A DNA stretch of 32,351 nt, taken from an uncultured Candidatus Saccharibacteria bacterium. Its GTDB lineage: Bacteria > Patescibacteriota > JACPGU01. The position numbers were made by a program, and so were the translations under genes. Where the stretch lies: NCBI GenBank assembly GCA_964355795.1, contig CAYHEQ010000002.1:1-32351 (forward strand), given 5' to 3'. This document shows positions 5,486 through 14,491 of this stretch, one piece after another. The notes under the pieces are model-generated. The model ran no database searches and was not told where the DNA came from. It saw nothing but the letters and a program-made list of their open reading frames with translations. The stretch's first letter is position 1, and every line of letters begins with the position of its first letter.

Positions 5486-5517
5486 CAAGACCCCTTCGAG
5501 CAATCGGAGGGGTCTTG
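5486..5517 (+). terminator. Strong hairpin after the S-layer-like gene (terminator or 3' stabiliser)
   Basis: caagaccccttcga-gcaa-tcggaggggtcttg; U-tract is weak. Confidence 0.6.
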
Positions 5518-5521
5518 AGTT

Positions 5522-5582
5522 GGGGCGTGATTAATCTTTATTGTATTGATTTTCGTAGGGGCGCGATTAATCGCGCCCCTAC
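5522..5582. repeat. Composite REP unit: degenerate half REP + TATTGTATTGATTTTC linker + full 28-bp REP (5555-5582)
   Basis: GTAGGGGCGCGATTAATCGCGCCCCTAC is a perfect palindrome. Confidence 0.92.
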
Positions 5583-5616
5583 GGGGAAATTAATGTATAG
5601 ATTTCAGACAACAATT

Positions 5617-6258
5617 ATGCAGAAAGAAAAAATCCAATATATTTTCATCTATTCTATTATAGGGTTGGTTATCCTGGGCATTATCGCTGTGGGGATTTAT
5701 TTTTTCGTAGGCTATATGAAGTGGCAGGGATACAAGAGCAACCCGAATAAAAAGACATTCGCAGAAATGGTAGAAAAAATCTATCAAAAACCAAGGGGGG
5801 AAAGGACAGGGGACGACTATCTTTCTCTCGGTGGCGCTTACTATTCTTTGGGGATGTTTGGCCACGCCATTAATGCCTATAAGACTTCGGATGAGATAAC
5901 GACTAGTCCCGTGGCGCTTCGTAATATAGGCAATGTCTATAAAGATACGAAGCAATATCCAAAGGCAGAAAAATATTATCTCCAGAGTATGGAGCTGGAC
6001 CCTTCAGAAACGCAGACCTTCGTAGATCTTTTTGAATTGTATAAAATCCCATGGAATGGTCAAAAATATAGTTCTGAAACGATTTTGCAATTAGGGATTG
6101 GCAAAATGGCCGATAATACTAGTCTTTTAGCCACATTAGCTAATTATTATAAAGAAATTGGCAATAAAGAAAAAGCCATAGAATATTACCGAAAGGTCTT
6201 AAAGGTGAAGCCCAGCAATGAAGCGGCAAAAAGGGAATTGGAGGAATTATTATTGTAG
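5617..6258 (+). CDS. Membrane-anchored tetratricopeptide repeat protein
   Basis: N-terminal TM helix (YIFIYSIIGLVILGIIAVGIYFFV); TPR motifs YLSLGGAYYSLGMFGHAINAY, ALRNIGNVYKDTKQYPKAEKYY and LATLANYYKEIGNKEKAIEYYRKVL. Start at 5617 or 5593; the stop TAG is part of a REP GTAG. Confidence 0.85.
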   Translation: MQKEKIQYIFIYSIIGLVILGIIAVGIYFFVGYMKWQGYKSNPNKKTFAEMVEKIYQKPRGERTGDDYLSLGGAYYSLGMFGHAINAYKTSDEITTSPVALRNIGNVYKDTKQYPKAEKYYLQSMELDPSETQTFVDLFELYKIPWNGQKYSSETILQLGIGKMADNTSLLATLANYYKEIGNKEKAIEYYRKVLKVKPSNEAAKRELEELLL

Positions 6259-6321
6259 GGGCGCGATTAATCGCTATTGTATTGATTTTCGTTGTAGGGG
6301 CGCGATTAATCGCGCCCCTAC
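6255..6321. repeat. Composite REP unit: half REP (6255-6274) + same 16-bp linker + full REP (6294-6321)
   Basis: Near-identical direct repeat of 5522-5582. Confidence 0.92.
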
Positions 6322-6334
6322 GGAGAAAAAAATA

Positions 6335-6353
6335 GGCCCCCATTCTGGGGGCC
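6335..6353 (-). terminator. Intrinsic terminator between convergent genes
   Basis: ggccccca-ttc-tgggggcc with an A-run on the left (U-tract on the minus strand) and a short T-run on the right. Confidence 0.65.
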
Positions 6354-6379
6354 CTTTCGGTTGCTAATGAAAAATCCTC

Positions 6380-8497
6380 TTAACGGAGCTGATATTTCTT
6401 GATTTGTCCGTCGAGGATGAAGACGCGACTATTGCCACTCCCGTCTCCGTAATTGCCGGAAGTGACCAGAGCTTGGGGGTCGTCGAGGTGGCCAGTGCCA
6501 CTTTCTTGGCCGAACTCTCCTTTGACCACGCCTTGGTCGTCAAAGACCTGGACACGGGTTTTTTCCAGGACGAAAACCATATCGTCCTTATCCACGGTGA
6601 TGTCCACCATATCGTCGCCGAACTGGCCGGCACCGGTTCCCGGGGATCCCCATGTTTTCAGGAGAGTGGGAGCGTATGGCCATACGCCCCTACTAATCTT
6701 GACGATGCGGTGGTTTCCCGCATCCAAGATGTAGATGTCGGTCGCATTCGTGGCGGAAGCCTTGGGGGTGTCCAGATCGGCGGAATACGTCCAGATGAAA
6801 GTCCCGTTCGGTTCGTACTTCCTGACATTGCCGGCATCAGGATCGGTAATGATCCAGTTGCCATCCATATCGCATTCCAGACGGGCATTGTCTCCCGCTT
6901 CCGCGCTGAAATTTAGTTTGCGGGAGAGCGAAGAACGGTAGAAGACCGTTAGGCGATCCTGGTAGGTATCCAGGAACCCAATGAGACCTTGCGTCGCGCA
7001 GGCCGCTATGGTTGTCGGCGCCGTCACGCTGTATGGTCCGGGGCTGGTGATGTTGTAAGAGCTCCCGCCCCCGTCCACTCCGTCATCCCACAGGTAGCCA
7101 CCCGAGGGATTGCCGTCCGTGTCCTGGATGGCAAAAACATTGTTGTAATTGATGCTTTCGACAGTGCCGAAAAATCCGGCGATGTCGTTGGCGGTGCGAC
7201 CCCAGCCGAGCTCGTACTCGTATAGTCCCGTTTCCGTTCCCCCTCCGCTCGTTACCACTGTGACCGTGGTCGTGCAGGTGTTGCTCCCGCCGGTGCCGGT
7301 GACCGTGCCGGTCGCTGTGTAGGTGCCGGTCGCGGTGTAAGTCTTGCTCGTGCTCCCGCTTGCGCTGGAGTTGGAGTAAGCATTCGACCCGTCGCCGAAG
7401 GAAATGCTCATCCCCGTGAAGCCCGATCCGCTCACTGTCCAACTGATGCTGGTGGCCGAATTGACGTTCGGATTGCTGGGGCTGGCCGAGAGACTGCAGG
7501 TCGGAGCGGACGGGTTGGAAGTCTCTCCGTAGTAGATGCTGGTTGCGACTTTCGTCTGGGAATTATTCGGATCTTCCGAACTCCAGCCGGCATCGTCCAC
7601 GCACCAGATCTTGATGTTGTTGTCGCCGGAAATAAGAGAGATCTCTTGATCCCAGGAGATCCAGACATCTTGTCCGATCTTGTCGGGATCGTCGTAACTC
7701 ACCATTTCCGCTGTGGCTGAACCGATTTGCAACCATAGGTTGCAGTCGGGGCGTTTGTTGCCCCCGATTATCGGAGTGGAGTCGGTGGTTGGTGATTCCA
7801 CCGTGTCCACAATGGGTGGATCGGGGCGGGTGGTGTCCAGCGTTGTGTCAAAGATCGTTCCGCCACTGGGCCTGTTGGAGCTGTCGCGACAGACGAAAAT
7901 ATGATGATTGGGTCCCTCCACCAGGGTCAAAGAATAGACCGACTGAGTGGAGCCATCGCGATTGACAATGATCTCTTGCCCGTCCATCTCCAAAGTGGGA
8001 CAATTGCTCCCCGTTTTGAAGGTGAGGGTCATGGACGGAGTTGTCACCACGGTCGGAATCGTCCCTACGAATCCGGGCGCCGAAGGACCGCCTTCAGGGC
8101 GATTGTTGACGATGATGGTGGCCGTGTAGGGTCCGGCAGTGTTGGTGCCGTCCGTCAAGGTCGCCGAGACGCCGAAGGTGCCGGTCTGCGCGTAAAGGTG
8201 GTACTTGTTGCAGGTCGCACCTTCGATTTTTCCGCCGTCACCGAAGCTGAAGTTGCAGGACAAAGAAGCCCCCTGTTTGCCTCCTGACGGTGTGCCGGAA
8301 CAGCGAACGGAATCGTTCTGATAGATGCTGGTCGGCTCACAACCCCAGTCCAAGAGCTTCAAGGGCTTTTCTTCCGTTGGAGGTGGAGCGGAAGCGCCAC
8401 CGCCTCCGCCACAGCCGACCAGAAACAGGGAAAAAACAAGCGTCAAAATGCCCGCGACCCGGGCAGGGGTCCAACCGAAATGGTTGAATTTCTTCAT
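6380..8497 (-). CDS. Putative lipoprotein with two PKD domains, Ig-like segments and a C-terminal NHL-repeat beta-propeller
   Basis: ATG 8497 after a GGGAGG RBS; lipobox LVG-C followed by a Gly linker; PKD motifs FSFGDG…YAQTGTFGV and ISFGDG…YTATGTYTA; NHL motif WGSPGTGAGQF…DITVDKDDMVFV; visibly GC-richer than its neighbours. Confidence 0.8.
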   Translation of the reverse strand: MKKFNHFGWTPARVAGILTLVFSLFLVGCGGGGGASAPPPTEEKPLKLLDWGCEPTSIYQNDSVRCSGTPSGGKQGASLSCNFSFGDGGKIEGATCNKYHLYAQTGTFGVSATLTDGTNTAGPYTATIIVNNRPEGGPSAPGFVGTIPTVVTTPSMTLTFKTGSNCPTLEMDGQEIIVNRDGSTQSVYSLTLVEGPNHHIFVCRDSSNRPSGGTIFDTTLDTTRPDPPIVDTVESPTTDSTPIIGGNKRPDCNLWLQIGSATAEMVSYDDPDKIGQDVWISWDQEISLISGDNNIKIWCVDDAGWSSEDPNNSQTKVATSIYYGETSNPSAPTCSLSASPSNPNVNSATSISWTVSGSGFTGMSISFGDGSNAYSNSSASGSTSKTYTATGTYTATGTVTGTGGSNTCTTTVTVVTSGGGTETGLYEYELGWGRTANDIAGFFGTVESINYNNVFAIQDTDGNPSGGYLWDDGVDGGGSSYNITSPGPYSVTAPTTIAACATQGLIGFLDTYQDRLTVFYRSSLSRKLNFSAEAGDNARLECDMDGNWIITDPDAGNVRKYEPNGTFIWTYSADLDTPKASATNATDIYILDAGNHRIVKISRGVWPYAPTLLKTWGSPGTGAGQFGDDMVDITVDKDDMVFVLEKTRVQVFDDQGVVKGEFGQESGTGHLDDPQALVTSGNYGDGSGNSRVFILDGQIKKYQLR

Positions 8498-8595
8498 CAC
8501 AAACCTCCCAGCCGGCAAGCCGGCGTTTTTTTGGTTTTTCTCGCTTATAAAAGGGCGAGCGAGAGGGCGCTAGGCGCACTCTCCTTTCATGGCTT

Positions 8596-8624
8596 AATTT
8601 AGCATTTTTTTCTGATTTAGTCAA
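8596..8624 (-). promoter_or_regulatory. Putative sigma70 promoter for the lipoprotein gene
   Basis: Minus strand: TTGACT (8624-8619), 17 nt, TAAATT (8601-8596) with an extended -10 TG. Confidence 0.5.
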
Positions 8625-8731
8625 GCAGTTCGCGAGTTAATGGGCGAATCTGGCAAATCAGACGCGAAACGGGGCGAAATCAGGTTTAGATAAAGCTAGA
8701 GGAAGAGGCTGGAAAATGGTAAGATGCTTTT

Positions 8732-9997
8732 ATGCTCAAAATGTTTTTTTCTTTTCTCAAAGACAATCCTTTGGCGCGGGGGAGCCTGATTCTTTTTGTG
8801 GGTTCTTTTTTGGCCGGGGTCTTGAGCTATATTTTCAATGCCATTATGGGACGAATGTTGGGGCCAGAAGATTATGGCGCTTTCGCCTCCTTGGTATCTC
8901 TCACTTACATTACCGGGGTGCCGGCGGGAACTATCGCAGTAGTAGTAGCCAAAAAAATGGCCGAATTGCAGGCTAAAAATGAGATGACCAAAAGCCGGCC
9001 GTTCGTTGGTTATGTCGCCAAGCAATCGGCCATTTTTGGCGTTGTAGTCTTTTTGATTTTTTTGGTTTTGATCCCATTGATAATGGGGTTTTTGAAAATT
9101 GAATCTTTCTGGGCGGTTTTAATTTTGGGGCTAAGTCTTTTGGTCTCTTTCGTCTCCGCTGTGCCATCGGGAGGTCTGCGGGGGTTGGAGAAATTTTTTG
9201 AGATATCTTGGAGCTCAATTTTTTCTGCGCTAACGAGAATTGGTCTGGGCGTCCTTTTCGTTCTGGTTGGCTGGAGAGTGGCGGGAGGTCTTTTCGCCGC
9301 TTTGTGCGCTGATATTTTGGTGACCTTAGTTATTTTTCATTATTTGAGATTGCCCAAAGAAAGGACTGTTTTAGCTCGTGAAGATACGAAACTGTCGTCT
9401 TTTGCTCTGCCCGTTTTTTTTGTCACCTTATTTATGGCGGTTTTGTATAATGCCGATGTGGTCTTGGCGAAGCATTTTCTGGACACTACTAACGCCGGTT
9501 ACTACGCCATTCTTTCCTTGTTGGGCAAAATAATATTTTTTGGCACCGCCTCTATTGGCGTCGTTATCTTCCCTATTACAGCTAAAAATCATTCCTTGGG
9601 ACTAGACAATAGTCGCATCTTGAAGCTTTCCCTTTGGCTCACCTTCATCGCTTCGGCGATGGTGACCGCGATTTATTTTGTTTTTCCGGACTTGGTTATC
9701 AAGATACTTTTTGGCGCATCATACCTGCCTGTCAGCCCCTATGTGGGGCTAATGGGTATAGTCTTCGTCTTTTATTCTTTGCTCAATATTCTAGTCTCTT
9801 ACGCGCTTTCTTGTGGTCGAACGGGCATCTCTTACATTCTGGCCGGGGGCGCCTTAGTCGAGATTTTGGCGCTTTTTCTCTTTCACGGTAGCCTTGGGGA
9901 GATAATTTATGCTATGATACTGGTAATGGCGATGACGCTAGGAGGGCTGGTAATATATCTAAAGTACGGAAGGATGGTCAAAAAATGGATACTTTGA
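8732..9997 (+). CDS. Wzx/MOP-family oligosaccharide flippase
   Basis: About 12 TM helices; typical motifs GRMLGPEDYGAF, NADVVLAKHFL…AGYYA and ILFGASY. Confidence 0.88.
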   Translation: MLKMFFSFLKDNPLARGSLILFVGSFLAGVLSYIFNAIMGRMLGPEDYGAFASLVSLTYITGVPAGTIAVVVAKKMAELQAKNEMTKSRPFVGYVAKQSAIFGVVVFLIFLVLIPLIMGFLKIESFWAVLILGLSLLVSFVSAVPSGGLRGLEKFFEISWSSIFSALTRIGLGVLFVLVGWRVAGGLFAALCADILVTLVIFHYLRLPKERTVLAREDTKLSSFALPVFFVTLFMAVLYNADVVLAKHFLDTTNAGYYAILSLLGKIIFFGTASIGVVIFPITAKNHSLGLDNSRILKLSLWLTFIASAMVTAIYFVFPDLVIKILFGASYLPVSPYVGLMGIVFVFYSLLNILVSYALSCGRTGISYILAGGALVEILALFLFHGSLGEIIYAMILVMAMTLGGLVIYLKYGRMVKKWIL

Positions 9998-10944
9998 GAA
10001 AACTGATTTCTATTATTGTGCCTGTTTTTAACGAAGAGAATAATATCGGTCTTATTCATCAGGCGCTAACGAAGACCCTCCTTGAAATCCGTGATCGGTA
10101 TGAGTACGAGATATTATTCGTCAATGACGGTAGTCGAGACAATAGTGGGCTAGTTATCAAAGATCTGGCGCGGATAGACCGGAGGGTTCGTTATCTGGAA
10201 TTCTCGCGCAATTTCGGCAAGGAAGTGGCGACAACCGCCGGCATCCACCATGCTCGCGGACACGCGGTGATGATGATTGACGCCGACCTCCAGCATCCGC
10301 CGGAGCTCATCCCGGAATTTATCAAAAAATGGGAGGAAGGCGCGGAGGTGATTATTGGCGTTCGCTCCTCTTTGCGGGCCAAAAGATTAAAAAAATTAGG
10401 CTCTGTATTTTTTTACAAAATAATTAATGTTATAGGTGAGAATATCCACTTGACTCCCTTTGCCACCGATTTCAGTCTCTTGGATAGGCGAGTGGTCAAG
10501 GAATTCAACAGATTCACCGAGAGGAGCAGAATGACGAGGGGGTTGGTCAATTGGCTTGGTTTCAAAAGGGATTTCGTCTACTTTGACGCGCCCGAGAGAG
10601 CCGACGGGAAACCCGGGTACGGTGGTTGGAGGCTAATCGGGTTGGCGATGAATACTTTCGTAGCGCACAGTCTTTTTCCCTTGAAATTGGCTGGCTATCT
10701 AGGGGTTTTCATCGTTTTGATTTCTGGCGTTTTGGGTTTCTATATCTTGCTTGGTAAGTATTTTTTTCACTGGGTTTTTGCTTTGAGTTTTTCTGGACCA
10801 GCGCAATTGGCAATCCTTATCATCTTTCTGGTCGGAATCATTTTGAGCTGTCTCGGGCTAATCGCTCTTTATATCGGCGGTATTCACAGCGAGATTCTTA
10901 ATCGGCCGATTTATGTGATACGGGAAAAGCATAATTTTGAATAG
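9985..10944 (+). CDS. GT2 polyprenol-phosphate glycosyltransferase (GtrB/DPM-like)
   Basis: SIIVPVFNEE, FVNDGSRD, FSRNFGKE, IDADLQHPPE, two C-terminal TMs and RPIYVI. Confidence 0.9.
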   Translation: MDTLRKLISIIVPVFNEENNIGLIHQALTKTLLEIRDRYEYEILFVNDGSRDNSGLVIKDLARIDRRVRYLEFSRNFGKEVATTAGIHHARGHAVMMIDADLQHPPELIPEFIKKWEEGAEVIIGVRSSLRAKRLKKLGSVFFYKIINVIGENIHLTPFATDFSLLDRRVVKEFNRFTERSRMTRGLVNWLGFKRDFVYFDAPERADGKPGYGGWRLIGLAMNTFVAHSLFPLKLAGYLGVFIVLISGVLGFYILLGKYFFHWVFALSFSGPAQLAILIIFLVGIILSCLGLIALYIGGIHSEILNRPIYVIREKHNFE

Positions 10945-10950
10945 GCGATT

Positions 10951-10978
10951 GTAGGGGCGCGATTAATCGCGCCCCTAC
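10951..10978. repeat. REP, 28-bp palindrome upstream of RAYT
   Basis: GTAGGGGCGCGATTAATCGCGCCCCTAC. Confidence 0.95.
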
Positions 10979-11000
10979 GGAGGATATGATAAAATAAGAT

Positions 11001-11546
11001 ATGCAAGGACAAAACAAAAACAGAAAATCTATTCGTCTCAAGAATTATGATTATTCCGAGCCAGGGGATTATTTCGTCACTATTTGTACGCAAGGAAGGA
11101 AATGTTTGTTCGGAGAAATACAAGAAGGCAAAATGATCTTGAATAGTATTGGAAAAGTAGCGGAAAAATGTTGGTTAGAAATACCCAAACATTTTCCTAA
11201 TGTAGAATTGGATATTTTTCAGATAATGCCAAATCATATCCATTTCATCTTGAGGATTTTAGATTGTAGGGGCGCGATTAATCGCGCCCCTACGGATGCG
11301 GTAAACGGTGGTTTTGCCAGTAGAAAAAGTCCAATGTTGAATCCAAATTCATTATCAAAAATAATTAGGTGGTTCAAGGGTAGAACAACATTCGAGATAC
11401 ATAAATTAGGATTTAATTTCCAGTGGCAACGTAATTTCTACGAACATATTATCCGCAACGAAAAATCATATAATGAGATCTATGCCTATATTGAATCCAA
11501 CCCCCAAATGTGGGATAGAGATAAAGATAATCCGGCCTATTCGTAG
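11001..11546 (+). CDS. REP-associated tyrosine transposase (RAYT/TnpA-REP, Y1 HUH, IS200/IS605 superfamily)
   Basis: RKSIRLKNYDY, YFVTICT, HUH motif IMPNHIHFI, and WQRNFYEHIIRN…YIESNP with the catalytic Tyr; REPs on both sides and inside the gene. Confidence 0.93.
   Translation: MQGQNKNRKSIRLKNYDYSEPGDYFVTICTQGRKCLFGEIQEGKMILNSIGKVAEKCWLEIPKHFPNVELDIFQIMPNHIHFILRILDCRGAINRAPTDAVNGGFASRKSPMLNPNSLSKIIRWFKGRTTFEIHKLGFNFQWQRNFYEHIIRNEKSYNEIYAYIESNPQMWDRDKDNPAYS
11266..11293. repeat. REP inside the RAYT coding sequence
   Basis: Consensus palindrome, translated as CRGAINRAPT. Confidence 0.95.
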
Positions 11547-11570
11547 GGGCAGAAAATCTTCTGCCCCTAC
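11543..11570. repeat. Variant REP providing the RAYT stop codon
   Basis: GTAGGGGCAGAA-AATC-TTCTGCCCCTAC; TAG at 11544-11546. Confidence 0.9.
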
Positions 11571-11594
11571 AGGGAACATCTAGGTCAACGCCAT

Positions 11595-12629
11595 ATGAAA
11601 TATAGTTTCATTATTCCAGTCAAAGCCATCAACGACTATATCAGGGAGGCGATCCCGGAGATTTTGAAAATCGCCAGAAACGATTACGAGATAATCGTCT
11701 ATCCGGATAGCGTAGGGGCGCAATTAATTGCGCCCCTACCGCCGGATGATCGTAGGGGCGCGATTAATCGCGCCCCTACGAGACAAATTGGCACGGGGGC
11801 GATGGGCCCAGCGGAAAAAAGGAGTCTGGCGATCCGCGATGCCAAAGGTGAGATTTTAATTTTCATAGACGATGACGCCTACCCTGAAAAAAACTTTCTG
11901 GATATTTTGGCCAAAGATTTTGAAGACGAAAGTGTGGTGGCGGTGGGCGGACCAGCGATCACGCCGAAGAATGATTCTTTTTGGCAAAAGGTTTCCGGAG
12001 CATTTTTTGTCAGCGCGCTTTCCGGTGGTTATCCCGAAAGGTATGTTTCAAAAGGCAAAAAAAGATTGGTTGACGACTGGCCGTCGGTCAATCTGTCGGT
12101 GCGCAAGAAATCTTTTGAAGAAATAGGTGGTTTCAATTCTTCTTATTGGCCGGGGGAAGATACGAAATTGTGCCTAGATTTACTGGCAAAAGGCGGAAAA
12201 ATTATTTACGATCCGGAACTGGTAGCCTATCACCACCGTCGCGCTGGCCTCTTGAAGCATTTGCGACAAGTCGGAGGGTACGGCATTCACAGGGGATTCT
12301 TTGCCAAGAAATATCCGCAGACTTCGCTCAAATTCAAGTATTTCCTGCCGAGTTTTTTTCTGCTTTTCAATATCTTGTTTCTTATTGATTTGGTGGCTTA
12401 TTTTCTCTATCCGAGCATTTTTGATTTGGTGACGGGAATATTTTTGCTGGGTTATGGCCTTTACTTTTTGGCTCTTTGCGTGGCCTTTTTTGACATTTAC
12501 AGATATGAAAGAAATTTTCTCATCAGCCTTTGCGCCTTGCCCTACATATTTTTTTCCCACCTGTATTACGGATGGCGATTTATCCAGGGTTTCGTCTTCA
12601 CCAAAGAGCTGAAGAGTAAATTGAGGTAA
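11595..12629 (+). CDS. GT2 glycosyltransferase with C-terminal TM helices and an in-frame double REP insertion
   Basis: YSFIIPV, IFIDDDA, IGGF…GED and a hydrophobic C-terminus. Confidence 0.88.
   Translation: MKYSFIIPVKAINDYIREAIPEILKIARNDYEIIVYPDSVGAQLIAPLPPDDRRGAINRAPTRQIGTGAMGPAEKRSLAIRDAKGEILIFIDDDAYPEKNFLDILAKDFEDESVVAVGGPAITPKNDSFWQKVSGAFFVSALSGGYPERYVSKGKKRLVDDWPSVNLSVRKKSFEEIGGFNSSYWPGEDTKLCLDLLAKGGKIIYDPELVAYHHRRAGLLKHLRQVGGYGIHRGFFAKKYPQTSLKFKYFLPSFFLLFNILFLIDLVAYFLYPSIFDLVTGIFLLGYGLYFLALCVAFFDIYRYERNFLISLCALPYIFFSHLYYGWRFIQGFVFTKELKSKLR
11712..11779. repeat. Two tandem REPs inside the GT2 gene
   Basis: GTAGGGGCGCAATTAATTGCGCCCCTAC (11712-11739) and a consensus copy (11752-11779). 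Confidence 0.95.
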
Positions 12630-12631
12630 AA

Positions 12632-12660
12632 TTATAGCCCGGGATTTTCCCGGGCTATAA
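12632..12660. terminator. Perfect 13-bp inverted repeat between convergent genes (probable terminator)
   Basis: ttatagcccggga-ttt-tcccgggctataa. Confidence 0.65.
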
Positions 12661-12676
12661 GGTTTCTTCAAAAAAG

Positions 12677-13450
12677 TTAAAGCGCGTTGTCTTCGACGAG
12701 CTGGCGCATAGCGCGTAGCATTTGTCGAAGCTTCCAGAGCGTAATGCCCTTGGCGCCCAGGGTAGCTTCAACCATGAAGTGGCCGGAGAAACCATTTTGC
12801 CTTATGAATCTAAGCATCTTGTGAAGCTCCGTATCTTCGCCCCTCATAATTTCCGACAATTCATCCCCTTGATTTGGCTGAACATGGACTACCTTGACGA
12901 AGGGAAGCAGGCGGGGGATTAAGAGTTGCCATTTTTCAAGCGGCATCCCTCTCTCATCCAAATGCTCCCAGACCGATCGACGAAGGTGATATGTGTCTAA
13001 TACGAGTTGGGCACGATGTTTTTTCGCCCAGCTGGCAATCTCACTCGTCTCCATATTGATTCTGGGGGAGACTTCGAGCAATCTTCCTTTTTGCCATTCT
13101 TCAATCGAATGGACGACGATGACCGGGGGAGGCTGGCGGATTTTCATCGCTTCAAAAATCTCCTGTGAGCGCTCCGGATTGGGGAAGAAAAGCCAGTCGG
13201 CGATATTGGGCACCAGGCCTTGGCCAGTTGGTTGACCGGACAAGGCTTCTCGGAGACTTCGCACCGGATTCCACGCTCCCTCTAAGTAACTAATCGGCAA
13301 GGAGGGCGTTATCCCTACCGATCCTCGAAGGGGCAACATACCTATAAAGCCGAACCCATCTTTTTCTGCCCACCGGGTGGCTTTTCTCGTAAAAAAAGCC
13401 GACCAAGGCAGGTAAGACGCCAGTGATACTCCGATTCTGTTTCTGGGCAT
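12677..13450 (-). CDS. Divergent xylose-isomerase-like TIM barrel protein (sugar phosphate isomerase/epimerase / AP endonuclease 2 fold)
   Basis: Metal-ligand pattern LLEV…LVLDTYHL…VVHVQ…FMVEA; GGGGAGG RBS upstream. Confidence 0.6.
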   Translation of the reverse strand: MPRNRIGVSLASYLPWSAFFTRKATRWAEKDGFGFIGMLPLRGSVGITPSLPISYLEGAWNPVRSLREALSGQPTGQGLVPNIADWLFFPNPERSQEIFEAMKIRQPPPVIVVHSIEEWQKGRLLEVSPRINMETSEIASWAKKHRAQLVLDTYHLRRSVWEHLDERGMPLEKWQLLIPRLLPFVKVVHVQPNQGDELSEIMRGEDTELHKMLRFIRQNGFSGHFMVEATLGAKGITLWKLRQMLRAMRQLVEDNAL

Positions 13451-13542
13451 TGCGAGTCGCCTCCCCTTGGATTTTCTGTCTGATTGACAAAGGACATCTT
13501 TGGCACTACTATGGAATAACCATATTGCCGAGATTAGAGAAT

Positions 13543-13571
13543 ATTATACATGGCATTGTTTTTTTTGTCAA
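13543..13571 (-). promoter_or_regulatory. Perfect-consensus sigma70 promoter for the antisense TIM-barrel gene
   Basis: Minus strand: TTGACA (13571-13566), 17 nt, TATAAT (13548-13543). Confidence 0.8.
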
Positions 13572-13586
13572 TATAAATTCAAAGAA

Positions 13587-14444
13587 ATGAGCAATAGGCC
13601 ATTACTTTCTGTCATTATTGCTACTAGGAACGAAGAAAAAAATATAGGCAACTGTATTCGCTCGATTTTGGGGCAAAGCTACAAAGATGTCGAGATTATC
13701 GTGGTGGACAAAGGATCTTCTGACAATACCGTAGAGATAGCGAGGTCTTTGGGCGCGACGGTATTTCCTTTGGCGGGCTATGTGGATATGGACGGTGTCA
13801 AAAACTTCCGAGGCGCGCAGGTCAATCTGGGGGCGAGAAAGGCTAAGGGAGATATCATCTTTTTCCCAGATGCGGATATGACTTTTGAAGAGGGTCTTTT
13901 GACGGAAGCAGTTGAAAAAATGGCCGAATATGACGCTCTTTATATCCCAGAGATAGTAATGGGCAAGGGATTGATGGGGCGGATCAGGAAGTTTGAGCGC
14001 AGTTTTTATAACGAAACGCCGATAGACGCCGTTAGGATTGTCAGAAAAGATATTTTCAAAAAAGTGGGCGGATTTGATGAAAAAAACATCGCTTTTTCTA
14101 CCGATGATTGGGATTTGACGAAGATGATTAAAAAAGTGACAGAGAAAATTTCTATTACCAAAAGCAAACTGTATCACAACGAAGCGCAGATTTCTCTCCG
14201 GAAATATTTACAGAAAAAATTGCAATACGCCGATACTTTTGCCGATTATATCGCTAAATGGGGTCAAGACGATCCTGATATCAAAAAGCAATTTGGTTTT
14301 TCCTACCGTTTTTTCGGAGTATTCTGGGAAAAAGGCAAATGGAGAAAATTACTTTGTCATCCATTCTTGGCTTTGGGGATGTATTCTTTGAGGGTGTTAG
14401 TAGGGGTGCGATTAATCGCACCCCTACGGGGGATAAATTTTTAG
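13587..14444 (+). CDS. GT2 glycosyltransferase; C-terminus encoded by a REP
   Basis: ATG 13587, LSVIIATRNEE, VVDKGSSD, FPDADM, VGGFDE; the tail VGVRLIAPL is the REP. Confidence 0.88.
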   Translation: MSNRPLLSVIIATRNEEKNIGNCIRSILGQSYKDVEIIVVDKGSSDNTVEIARSLGATVFPLAGYVDMDGVKNFRGAQVNLGARKAKGDIIFFPDADMTFEEGLLTEAVEKMAEYDALYIPEIVMGKGLMGRIRKFERSFYNETPIDAVRIVRKDIFKKVGGFDEKNIAFSTDDWDLTKMIKKVTEKISITKSKLYHNEAQISLRKYLQKKLQYADTFADYIAKWGQDDPDIKKQFGFSYRFFGVFWEKGKWRKLLCHPFLALGMYSLRVLVGVRLIAPLRGINF

Positions 14445-14491
14445 AAAACCGTAGGGGCGCGATTAATCGCACCCCTACAGGGGATAAATTT
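14400..14491. repeat. Tandem REP pair (51-bp period), each followed by GGGGATAAATTT
   Basis: GTAGGGGTGCGATTAATCGCACCCCTAC (14400-14427) and GTAGGGGCGCGATTAATCGCACCCCTAC (14451-14478). Confidence 0.93.

Follow-up and report, generated by a model that had tools for sequence, protein, structure and literature searches.

A RAYT gene within a cell-envelope glycan locus of a Candidatus Saccharibacteria bacterium and the dense cluster of double-foot palindromes around it

How does almost an entire family of short DNA palindromes come to lie within a few kilobases of a single gene? The question is raised by a stretch of 32,351 nucleotides (the window), which opens contig C2 (CAYHEQ010000002.1) in the draft genome of an uncultured Candidatus Saccharibacteria bacterium, an ultra-small organism from groundwater (GCA_964355795.1; 830,592 bp, 55 contigs, 43.8% G+C, 98.4% complete by marker genes). 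Here, a gene of the RAYT family (REP-associated tyrosine transposases, also called TnpA_REP) stands between two glycosyltransferase genes and is flanked, interrupted and surrounded by repetitive extragenic palindromes (REPs) of 28 bp. We consider it rather probable that the gene and its flanking REPs, a REPtron of TnpA_REP subclass 2.4 residing in a glycan operon, gave rise to a small and young REP family that was seeded at short range from the copies in and beside the gene.

The open reading frame (ORF) at 11001..11546 on the plus strand encodes a protein of 181 residues which, judged from its sequence and its predicted structure, is a RAYT, a Y1 HUH protein. It passes the Pfam profile PF01797 marginally (24.2 bits, cut-off 23, E 3.8e-05; residues 116-167 only), and its sole sequence match in the PDB is 4ER8, the TnpA_REP of E. 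coli. The HUH motif is H79-I-H81; H79, H81 and N167 are invariant among 36 aligned sequences, and Y163 is kept in at least 90% of them. The segment YAYIESNP aligns with VDYIYINP of 4ER8, placing Y163 and N167 on the catalytic tyrosine and the asparagine of that enzyme, described as Y115 and the metal ligand N119 in PMC6006769. W142, Q143, E148, H149 and R152 align with the residues that contact GTAG in the 4ER8 segment WQPRFWEHAIR, where W94, Q95, E100, H101 and R104 are given as the GTAG recognition residues (PMC6006769). An AlphaFold2 model of the protein (predicted local distance difference test score, pLDDT, 83.5, with values below 50 at residues 91-111, the REP-coded insert region) has 4ER8_A as its top Foldseek match (E 2.9e-07, TM-score 0.59/0.64, root-mean-square deviation 2.7, ~20% identity), followed by the TnpA proteins of IS608, ISDra2 and IS200. 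The C-terminus lies 14 residues beyond N167, leaving no C-terminal extension.

The repeat itself, GTAGGGGCGCGATTAATCGCGCCCCTAC, is a 28-bp palindrome that opens with GTAG and closes with CTAC. A search of the window with this pattern, allowing up to three mismatches, found eight sites against 0.00 expected from dinucleotide shuffles. Five of these are exact (5555..5582, 6294..6321, 10951..10978, 11266..11293 and 11752..11779); the copies at 11712..11739 (GCAATTAATTGC) and 14400..14427 carry two changes each, which compensate one another so that the palindrome is still perfect, while the copy at 14451..14478 has a single change that leaves one position unpaired. A ninth copy, at 11543..11570, keeps the feet GTAGGGGC...GCCCCTAC and differs in its inner stem (GTAGGGGCAGAAAATCTTCTGCCCCTAC), and all nine have GTAG at the start and CTAC at the end. 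Two half copies, one degenerate (GGGGCGTGATTAATC..., 5524..5541) and one identical to the left 20 nt of the REP (6255..6274), bring the cluster to its full span of 5524-14478. A first-pass annotation, made by a model from the letters alone, had called the gene a RAYT and had counted nine full copies, five of them identical, and two halves; both the call and the count are borne out. Its statement that the rest of the window is free of REPs holds for this sequence class, of which pattern, variant and half-arm searches found no further copy in the window, but not for GTAG elements at large. At ~635-714 lies a GTAG...CTAC element of another sequence class, with two to three different GC-rich hairpins (GTAGGGGTGGGGCTTGCCCCCACCC ... 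GGCGACCGCAAGGGTCGCCCCTAC), and relatives of this element occur on contigs C5, C8, C9, C22 and C31 of the same genome. As single-stranded DNA, the REPs are predicted to fold with energies of -13.7 to -18.4 kcal/mol (z ~-7), the copy at 5555 giving -18.4 kcal/mol (z -7.0), and the pairs 11712/11752 and 14400/14451 are each predicted to be able to fold as one long hairpin. The mirror symmetry goes 0-2 bases beyond the 28-mer in all nine copies.

Three of the copies belong to the RAYT gene itself. That at 10951..10978 forms its 5' flank and the left end of the REPtron, 7 nt past the stop codon of the upstream glycosyltransferase gene and 23 nt before the RAYT start; that at 11543..11570 forms the 3' flank and its GTAG supplies the RAYT stop codon (TAG); and that at 11266..11293 lies in frame within the gene, where it encodes CRGAINRAPT (residues 88-97) just past the HUH strand. 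The gene thus has the arrangement of a REPtron, being bordered by GTAG-footed hairpins (10951-10978 and 11543-11570) that recur in the genome, and the fact that the palindromes both flank the gene and sit within it supports their being its cognate REPs. A homologue search with the protein gave 3866 matches, several of them called RayT by their sources; the best are 67% identical and come from Patescibacteria according to source names. Among the matches listed, lengths range from 108 to 265 residues, with all length differences falling at the insert after the HUH motif, and at this same site 35 aligned homologues hold peptides such as CRGAINRAPT, CRDAINRVST, CRGLINQTPT and VGAGLKPAPT, together with tandem expansions of such peptides. 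At the DNA level, the loci of five of the 11 best relatives have in-gene palindromes which differ in sequence from one another and are each perfect.

Placed by these features of sequence and layout rather than by the published profiles or tree, the element is a REPtron of TnpA_REP subclass 2.4 as defined by Quentin et al. 2018 (PMC6006769), whose members are the group 4 RAYTs of Bertels et al. 2017 (PMC5581495). According to PMC6006769, REPs of this subclass are either canonical or 'double foot' (5' GT[AG]G and 3' C[TC]AC) and may occur in frame inside tnpA_REP genes, between HuH and Y, and the enzymes have a variable beta3-alphaC insert, no C-terminal extension and a patchy distribution over phyla. 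The window element shares the double feet, the flanking and the in-frame in-gene REPs, the HUH/Y1 core, the variable insert and the missing extension, and its in-gene REP (11266-11293) likewise lies after H81 and before Y163. It differs in its host, a member of the CPR (candidate phyla radiation)/Patescibacteria with a genome of 0.83 Mb, as against the Cyanobacteria, Bacteroidetes, Chlorobia and Caldilineae named in PMC6006769, and in its tiny REP family of 10 copies, almost all of them restricted to a 9-kb span around the gene. The element is of a known kind: the palindrome, which the first-pass annotation had set apart as unlike canonical REPs, is a published REP variant, the double-foot form described for this subclass in PMC6006769. 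Biochemical work on a subclass 2.4 enzyme was not found in the literature cited here, and no paper on RAYTs or REPs in CPR bacteria was found among the titles listed by literature searches on Patescibacteria and the candidate phyla radiation.

When REP density was mapped over the whole genome against distance from the RAYT, a check that the first-pass annotation had proposed, the distribution proved far from uniform. The genome holds ten copies, nine within 8.9 kb around the RAYT and the tenth at C16:7308-7335, a concentration with a probability of 1.6e-14 by a scan-statistic approximation. Treating the REPtron and each pair as single events puts five of six events in the cluster, a level reached in 2 of 2,000,000 simulations. 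Six of the ten copies are identical; the others have 1-2 changes or a different inner stem. The tenth copy belongs to a second RAYT gene, truncated at its 5' end (C16:7269-7594, residues 89-178), which begins exactly at the REP and whose neighbours are genes for a 537-aa membrane protein and a GTPase; its coding DNA is 83% identical to the window RAYT (224/271), and its REP 28/28 identical. A further 12 double-foot palindromes, all perfect but different in sequence (ten start GTAGAGAC), sit on ten other contigs (C5, C6, C8, C11, C14, C27, C30, C36, C53 and C54), and the clustering is therefore not explained by a general intolerance of REPs in a small genome. Since no RAYT of the draft genome carries a palindrome of the GTAGAGAC type in-gene, these 12 look like orphan REPs of a RAYT that was lost or left unassembled. 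A Y1 transposase-like gene at C48:4132-4572 (minus strand) was considered as a further member of the family and rejected, being 25% identical to the RAYT and without a GTAG REP, and thus of a different family; it has the motif YVIMPNHIHLL, and two tandem copies of a palindromic repeat of ~27 nt lie just downstream of it.

Whether the REPs are additions to the locus can be judged from its relatives. By Pfam, the genes around the RAYT encode a flippase-type polysaccharide exporter, four family 2 (GT2) and one family 1 (GT1) glycosyltransferases, methyltransferases, radical SAM enzymes and a GT-C-like protein, a gene set which is a cell-envelope glycan cluster. The RAYT lies between GT2a (9985..10944, plus strand; PF00535, 3.7e-29), the upstream neighbour of the insertion point, and GT2b (11595..12629, plus strand; assigned by Pfam). 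A metagenome scan with the GT2b protein gave 459 relatives, the best 64% identical and none of them a strain-level relative of this locus, and 80 of the loci were compared. A RAYT was present in 0 of these 80. Of the 63 loci that have at least 1.1 kb of upstream DNA, 23 have the end of GT2a at -60..150 nt from the GT2b start; in the window the two genes are 650 nt apart, and the gap is occupied by REP-RAYT-REP. Inside GT2b, the distance from the motif YPD to the motif TRQI is ~8 residues in all 25 aligned orthologues versus 23 in the window, nearly all of these REP-coded, with the copies at 11712..11739 and 11752..11779 both in frame and read as VGAQLIAPL and RRGAINRAPT, respectively. Perfect double-foot palindromes were absent from the 890,163 bp of the 80 orthologous loci. 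By this comparison of sequences, both the REP-RAYT-REP unit and the REP pair in GT2b are clearly derived insertions. The GT2b enzyme is probably intact despite the pair, because the REP-coded stretch appears as an unstructured loop in an otherwise confident AlphaFold2 model (mean pLDDT 88.9): it falls in residues 41-60, where the means of the two 10-residue blocks are 55 and 50, and has no secondary structure between the strands at 31-36 and 62-64.

The remaining copies lie farther out in the locus. A gene for a TPR membrane protein (ORF 5515-6258, gene ~5594-6258) is bracketed by two composites of 59-67 bp (5524-5582 and 6255-6321), arranged as direct repeats and each made of a half REP, a spacer and a full REP. 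The left composite, upstream of the gene, joins the degenerate half at 5524..5541 through the spacer TATTGTATTGATTTTC to the copy at 5555..5582, which lies 12-36 nt 5' of the likely ATG starts. In the right one, the GTAG of the half at 6255..6274 supplies the TAG stop of the TPR ORF, as the variant copy does for the RAYT, and the copy at 6294..6321 lies in the spacer between this gene and the convergent gene at 6380-8518 (minus strand), which encodes a PKD-domain protein of 712 aa with a signal-peptide-like N-terminus and has 53-58% G+C. An ORF of 257 aa without a Pfam match (12677-13450, minus strand) lies antisense between GT2b and the glycosyltransferase gene GT2c. The copy at 14400..14427 makes up the C-terminal tail (VGVRLIAPLRGINF), that is the last 14 codons, of the GT2 gene at 13500-14444, and the copy at 14451..14478 stands in the spacer before a methyltransferase gene, followed by GGGGATAAATTT as the 14400 copy is. 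The first-pass statement that most copies lie at or near gene ends holds in part: several stand just past stop codons and one is a gene tail, but three (11266, 11712 and 11752) lie in frame inside ORFs. None of the TPR, PKD and 257-aa genes has a counterpart in the orthologous glycan loci (48 loci of at least 9 kb with a match were tabulated), and tblastn found no close paralogue of these three proteins or of the GT2 proteins in the genome. Downstream of the conserved genes, related loci that have no REP at all likewise differ in gene content.

Seeding from the RAYT gene at short range would have proceeded as follows. A REP-RAYT-REP unit of 620 bp (10951-11570) entered the short spacer of a conserved flippase-GT2-GT2 module. 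In single-stranded DNA, the 28-bp palindrome would form a GTAG-footed hairpin on either strand, a putative substrate that the HUH/Y1 nuclease may cut and rejoin, by analogy with characterised TnpA_REP enzymes, of which a cognate enzyme cleaves and strand-transfers REPs that are perfect palindromes in vitro (Corneloup et al. 2021, PMC8266576). The in-gene and adjoining copies would then have seeded pairs or composites in four places, at -5.4, -4.7, +0.2 and +2.9 kb; plain tandem duplication may have enlarged at least one of the pairs, and copies would have persisted where they were harmless, in spacers, in gene tails and in the surface loop of GT2b. We infer in this that the RAYT was the maker of the copies, that the copying was short-range and that the family is, probably, young.

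A number of observations weigh against this account. The pair at 14400/14451, in which the 3' flank GGGGATAAATTT is repeated after each copy and both copies share the right-arm variant GCACCCC, fits by sequence a tandem duplication of ~51 bp followed by a compensating change; since such a duplication explains it, the pair needs no transposase. Composites of the left 20 nt of the REP, 19 nt and a full REP are found at 6255-6321 and C16:7269-7335 and, degenerate, at 5524-5582; the one on C16 is in frame with the truncated RAYT. Such composites are not expected from simple cut-and-paste of the 28-mer. Taken together, the composites, the C16 fragment, the tandem pair and the strict identity of the hairpin fit cutting or recombination at REPs, be it by the RAYT, by replication slippage or by homologous recombination alike. 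The genome is a 55-contig draft, and REPs on unassembled or unbinned DNA would escape the count. Logan contigs from four runs of three studies were compared with the window (depth ~2-7); these contigs, which break at REPs and cannot reveal rare forms, showed no joints and no REP presence/absence variants, and at their loose ends at REP borders the REP adjoins other sequence of these metagenomes, one such end matching the C16 locus. A further point is the distribution in six related genomes in which the cognate in-gene REP was mapped at up to three mismatches. Genomes G029 (a single contig) and G003 have one site each, the in-gene copy. G004 has three, two of them 172 and 398 kb from the RAYT, and G025 has three on three contigs, one of these 246 nt 5' of the RAYT and two on other contigs, while the six of G014 comprise the in-gene copy, one ~1 kb away, one 44 kb away and three on another contig. 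G002 has 12 sites on nine contigs, four of them within 15.3 kb on the contig of the RAYT that bears this REP and three more 8-15 kb from other RAYT paralogues, a modest excess that was noticed post hoc. With sole in-gene or dispersed copies in these six genomes, preference for copying in cis or at short range does not hold for the family as a whole.

The window is an extreme case of REP clustering: in 16 RAYT neighbourhoods (up to 20 kb) from seven genomes, none had a comparable REP density, each holding 0-5 perfect or near-perfect double-foot palindromes. Of the local, cis-preferring spread that the first-pass annotation had suggested, the clustering is borne out as real and extreme, and the preference for copying in cis fails as a general property, given the six related genomes and the dispersed copies found in Fluviicola. 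Public genomes from many phyla contain the exact window 28-mer, in at least 119 stretches, and their titles name Fluviicola, Flavobacteriales, Prevotellaceae, Fibrimonadaceae, FCPU426, Deltaproteobacteria, Methylomirabilis, Gemmatimonas, Nitrospirae, Chloroflexi, Uhrbacteria and Peribacteria, among others; the Fluviicola genomes have many exact copies dispersed over different contigs. Among the matches listed, the 28-mer lies inside a RAYT gene in 2 of 119 stretches. Because the identical 28-mer is found in RAYT genes merely 45% and 60% identical in protein and in the C16 gene at 83% DNA identity, the hairpin is kept or renewed much more strictly than the surrounding gene. In 67 of the 119 listed stretches the palindrome runs on for at least four mirrored bases into otherwise variable A-rich/T-rich flanks, and in 46 for at least six.

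The Logan contigs gave two further observations. A 3-nt deletion at 6291 occurs in a single low-depth contig of one run. Contigs from three runs of two studies track the RAYT to 11453 and then pass into unrelated sequence, and others bear REP variants with different flanks; from such diverging contigs it follows that further RAYT/REP contexts exist in the same metagenomes, in other organisms or in unbinned DNA.

The points raised against seeding at short range lead to the question of whether the halo could have formed without a working RAYT. Rather than a product of REP transposition, it could be a residue of local rearrangements, in which RAYT genes lying between REPs were deleted, REPs were duplicated in tandem and the in-gene copy acted as a donor in gene conversion, with the RAYT having no current role. 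The C16 composite, in frame with the remaining half of a RAYT, has RAYT-free counterparts at 6255-6321 and 5524-5582, the latter degenerate; the repeated flank GGGGATAAATTT of the 14400/14451 pair is what a 51-bp tandem duplication would leave; and homologues show tandem expansion of REP-coded peptides in the gene. No residual RAYT similarity is seen beside the window composites, however, where tblastn gave matches of REP length only, the flanks are not repeated at the GT2b pair, and a REP pair within the loop of a conserved enzyme is hard to derive from a decayed RAYT, all of which makes this origin unlikely. A different idea takes the REPs as break points, RAYT-dependent or used by recombination, at which genes are moved and swapped, diversifying a surface-glycan and surface-protein locus. 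The TPR gene between its two direct composites, the truncation of the second RAYT exactly at a REP, the G+C content of the REP-adjoining PKD gene compared with 43.8% for the genome, and the lack of counterparts of the TPR, PKD and 257-aa genes in the tabulated loci would suit it, as would the excision by IS200/IS605 enzymes of DNA between two end hairpins (PMC6006769, PMC8266576). Yet the genome has no second TPR, PKD or 257-aa gene, the contigs of the four runs contain no circular or deletion joints, most window REPs bracket no gene, and gene content around the flippase-GT2a-GT2b core is equally variable in REP-free related loci. We regard such shuffling as very unlikely, and the first-pass suggestion that the REPs diversify a surface-antigen locus finds no support.

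It is highly improbable that the hairpins are kept for a function in the host, as local terminators, mRNA stabilisers or protein-binding sites of the glycan operon. Several copies do lie just past stop codons (6294, 10951, 11543 and 14451), REPs downstream of genes have been proposed as RNA elements, and GTAG-1 arrays flank the exopolysaccharide (EPS) genes of Thauera sp. MZ1T (PMC3733652); against this, four copies are translated within ORFs, none is followed by a T run, orthologous operons do without such hairpins (0 in 890 kb), and many phyla have the same 28-mer in unrelated contexts. Import of the whole segment from a donor rich in this REP, such that the local density merely reflects the donor, is hardly probable at all. 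The many public stretches with the exact 28-mer, the dispersed copies in Fluviicola and the uneven G+C across 6-9 kb would be in keeping with a donor of this kind, but the genes that bear or abut REPs (flippase, GT2a, GT2b and GT2c) have their best relatives, in the same order, in loci of the same kind, which are without REPs; the density here, ~1 copy per kb, is far above that of any genome seen with the 28-mer (at least 119 stretches, in which matches are single); and the best RAYT homologues, at 67% identity, are Patescibacteria by source name.

Comparison with characterised systems shows what is shared and what is particular. The E. coli REPtron (4ER8) has the same fold, HUH motif, catalytic tyrosine, asparagine four residues on, W-Q...E-H..R series and GTAG directly 5' of the hairpin; the protein identity is ~20%, and in E. 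coli the REPs are imperfect, bulged palindromes, present in hundreds and dispersed, whereas the window REP is perfectly palindromic and has a second foot, complementary to the first. The REPIN-RAYT system of Pseudomonas (PMC3116915) similarly ties non-autonomous hairpin repeats to one RAYT, and the window REPs are often paired, but REPINs, as described there, are two inverted REPs copied as a unit into populations that are large and dispersed, and their RAYTs, of groups 2 and 3, are single-copy and vertically inherited. The window REPs are not REPINs: each is its own inverse, singles occur, and there are ten copies, undispersed; several RAYT paralogues are present in relatives. GTAG REPs concentrated at few loci are known from the GTAG-23 blocks of Thermomicrobium roseum and from Thauera sp. 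MZ1T, in the latter around exopolysaccharide genes (Di Nocera et al. 2013, PMC3733652); these are large arrays in REP-rich genomes, with no RAYT stated in that account to lie inside the cluster, while the window cluster is centred on a RAYT and includes nearly the whole family. The same paper treats intragenic REPs and Rickettsia palindromic elements (RPEs), which are in frame, often dimers encoding 20-30 residues, and tolerated in loops, as the GT2b pair is in frame and in a loop; RPEs are longer and have no transposase gene nearby, whereas the source gene here lies 166 nt from the REP pair. The insertion sequences of the IS200/IS605 family (IS608, ISDra2) have a related Y1 HUH enzyme, a hairpin-bordered gene and a guide tetranucleotide 5' of the hairpin, with the difference that here the hairpin is repeated and the gene is not. 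With one full unit, and the other copy only a 5'-truncated fragment (residues 89-178, 83% DNA identity), the element is not a member of that family.

The likeness to IS200/IS605 elements invites a bolder proposal, which we think quite unlikely: that the REPs are portable cassette ends, any two same-strand copies serving as left and right hairpins between which genes, for instance the TPR gene between its direct composites, would be excised and reinserted by the RAYT in an IS200/IS605-like 'peel and paste'. If this were true, an ultra-small bacterium would possess a private system that reshuffles the genes of its surface structures beside the enzyme. In a milder form of this proposal, the in-gene REP may be a founder copy that travels with the RAYT and seeds a new family nearby; G029 and G003, which have the in-gene copy alone, this genome with its local halo, and the dispersed copies of G002, G014 and Fluviicola would then represent successive stages.

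What this locus adds is not a new kind of element, nor is there evidence that the REPs benefit or diversify the glycan locus. Particular to it are the REP-RAYT-REP unit between glycosyltransferase genes, the in-frame pair in GT2b and the extreme clustering. REP dissemination in cells has not yet been seen, and cleavage and strand transfer in vitro have been shown for few TnpA_REP enzymes (PMC8266576). This genome offers a rare natural snapshot, with nearly the whole REP family no more than 5.5 kb from the enzyme gene and with insertions that are derived relative to REP-free loci, and the locus is a convenient test case for short-range copying of hairpins by RAYTs. It also shows that, in a 0.83-Mb genome, a glycosyltransferase loop and gene tails can take up such hairpins in frame, with the reading frame unbroken.

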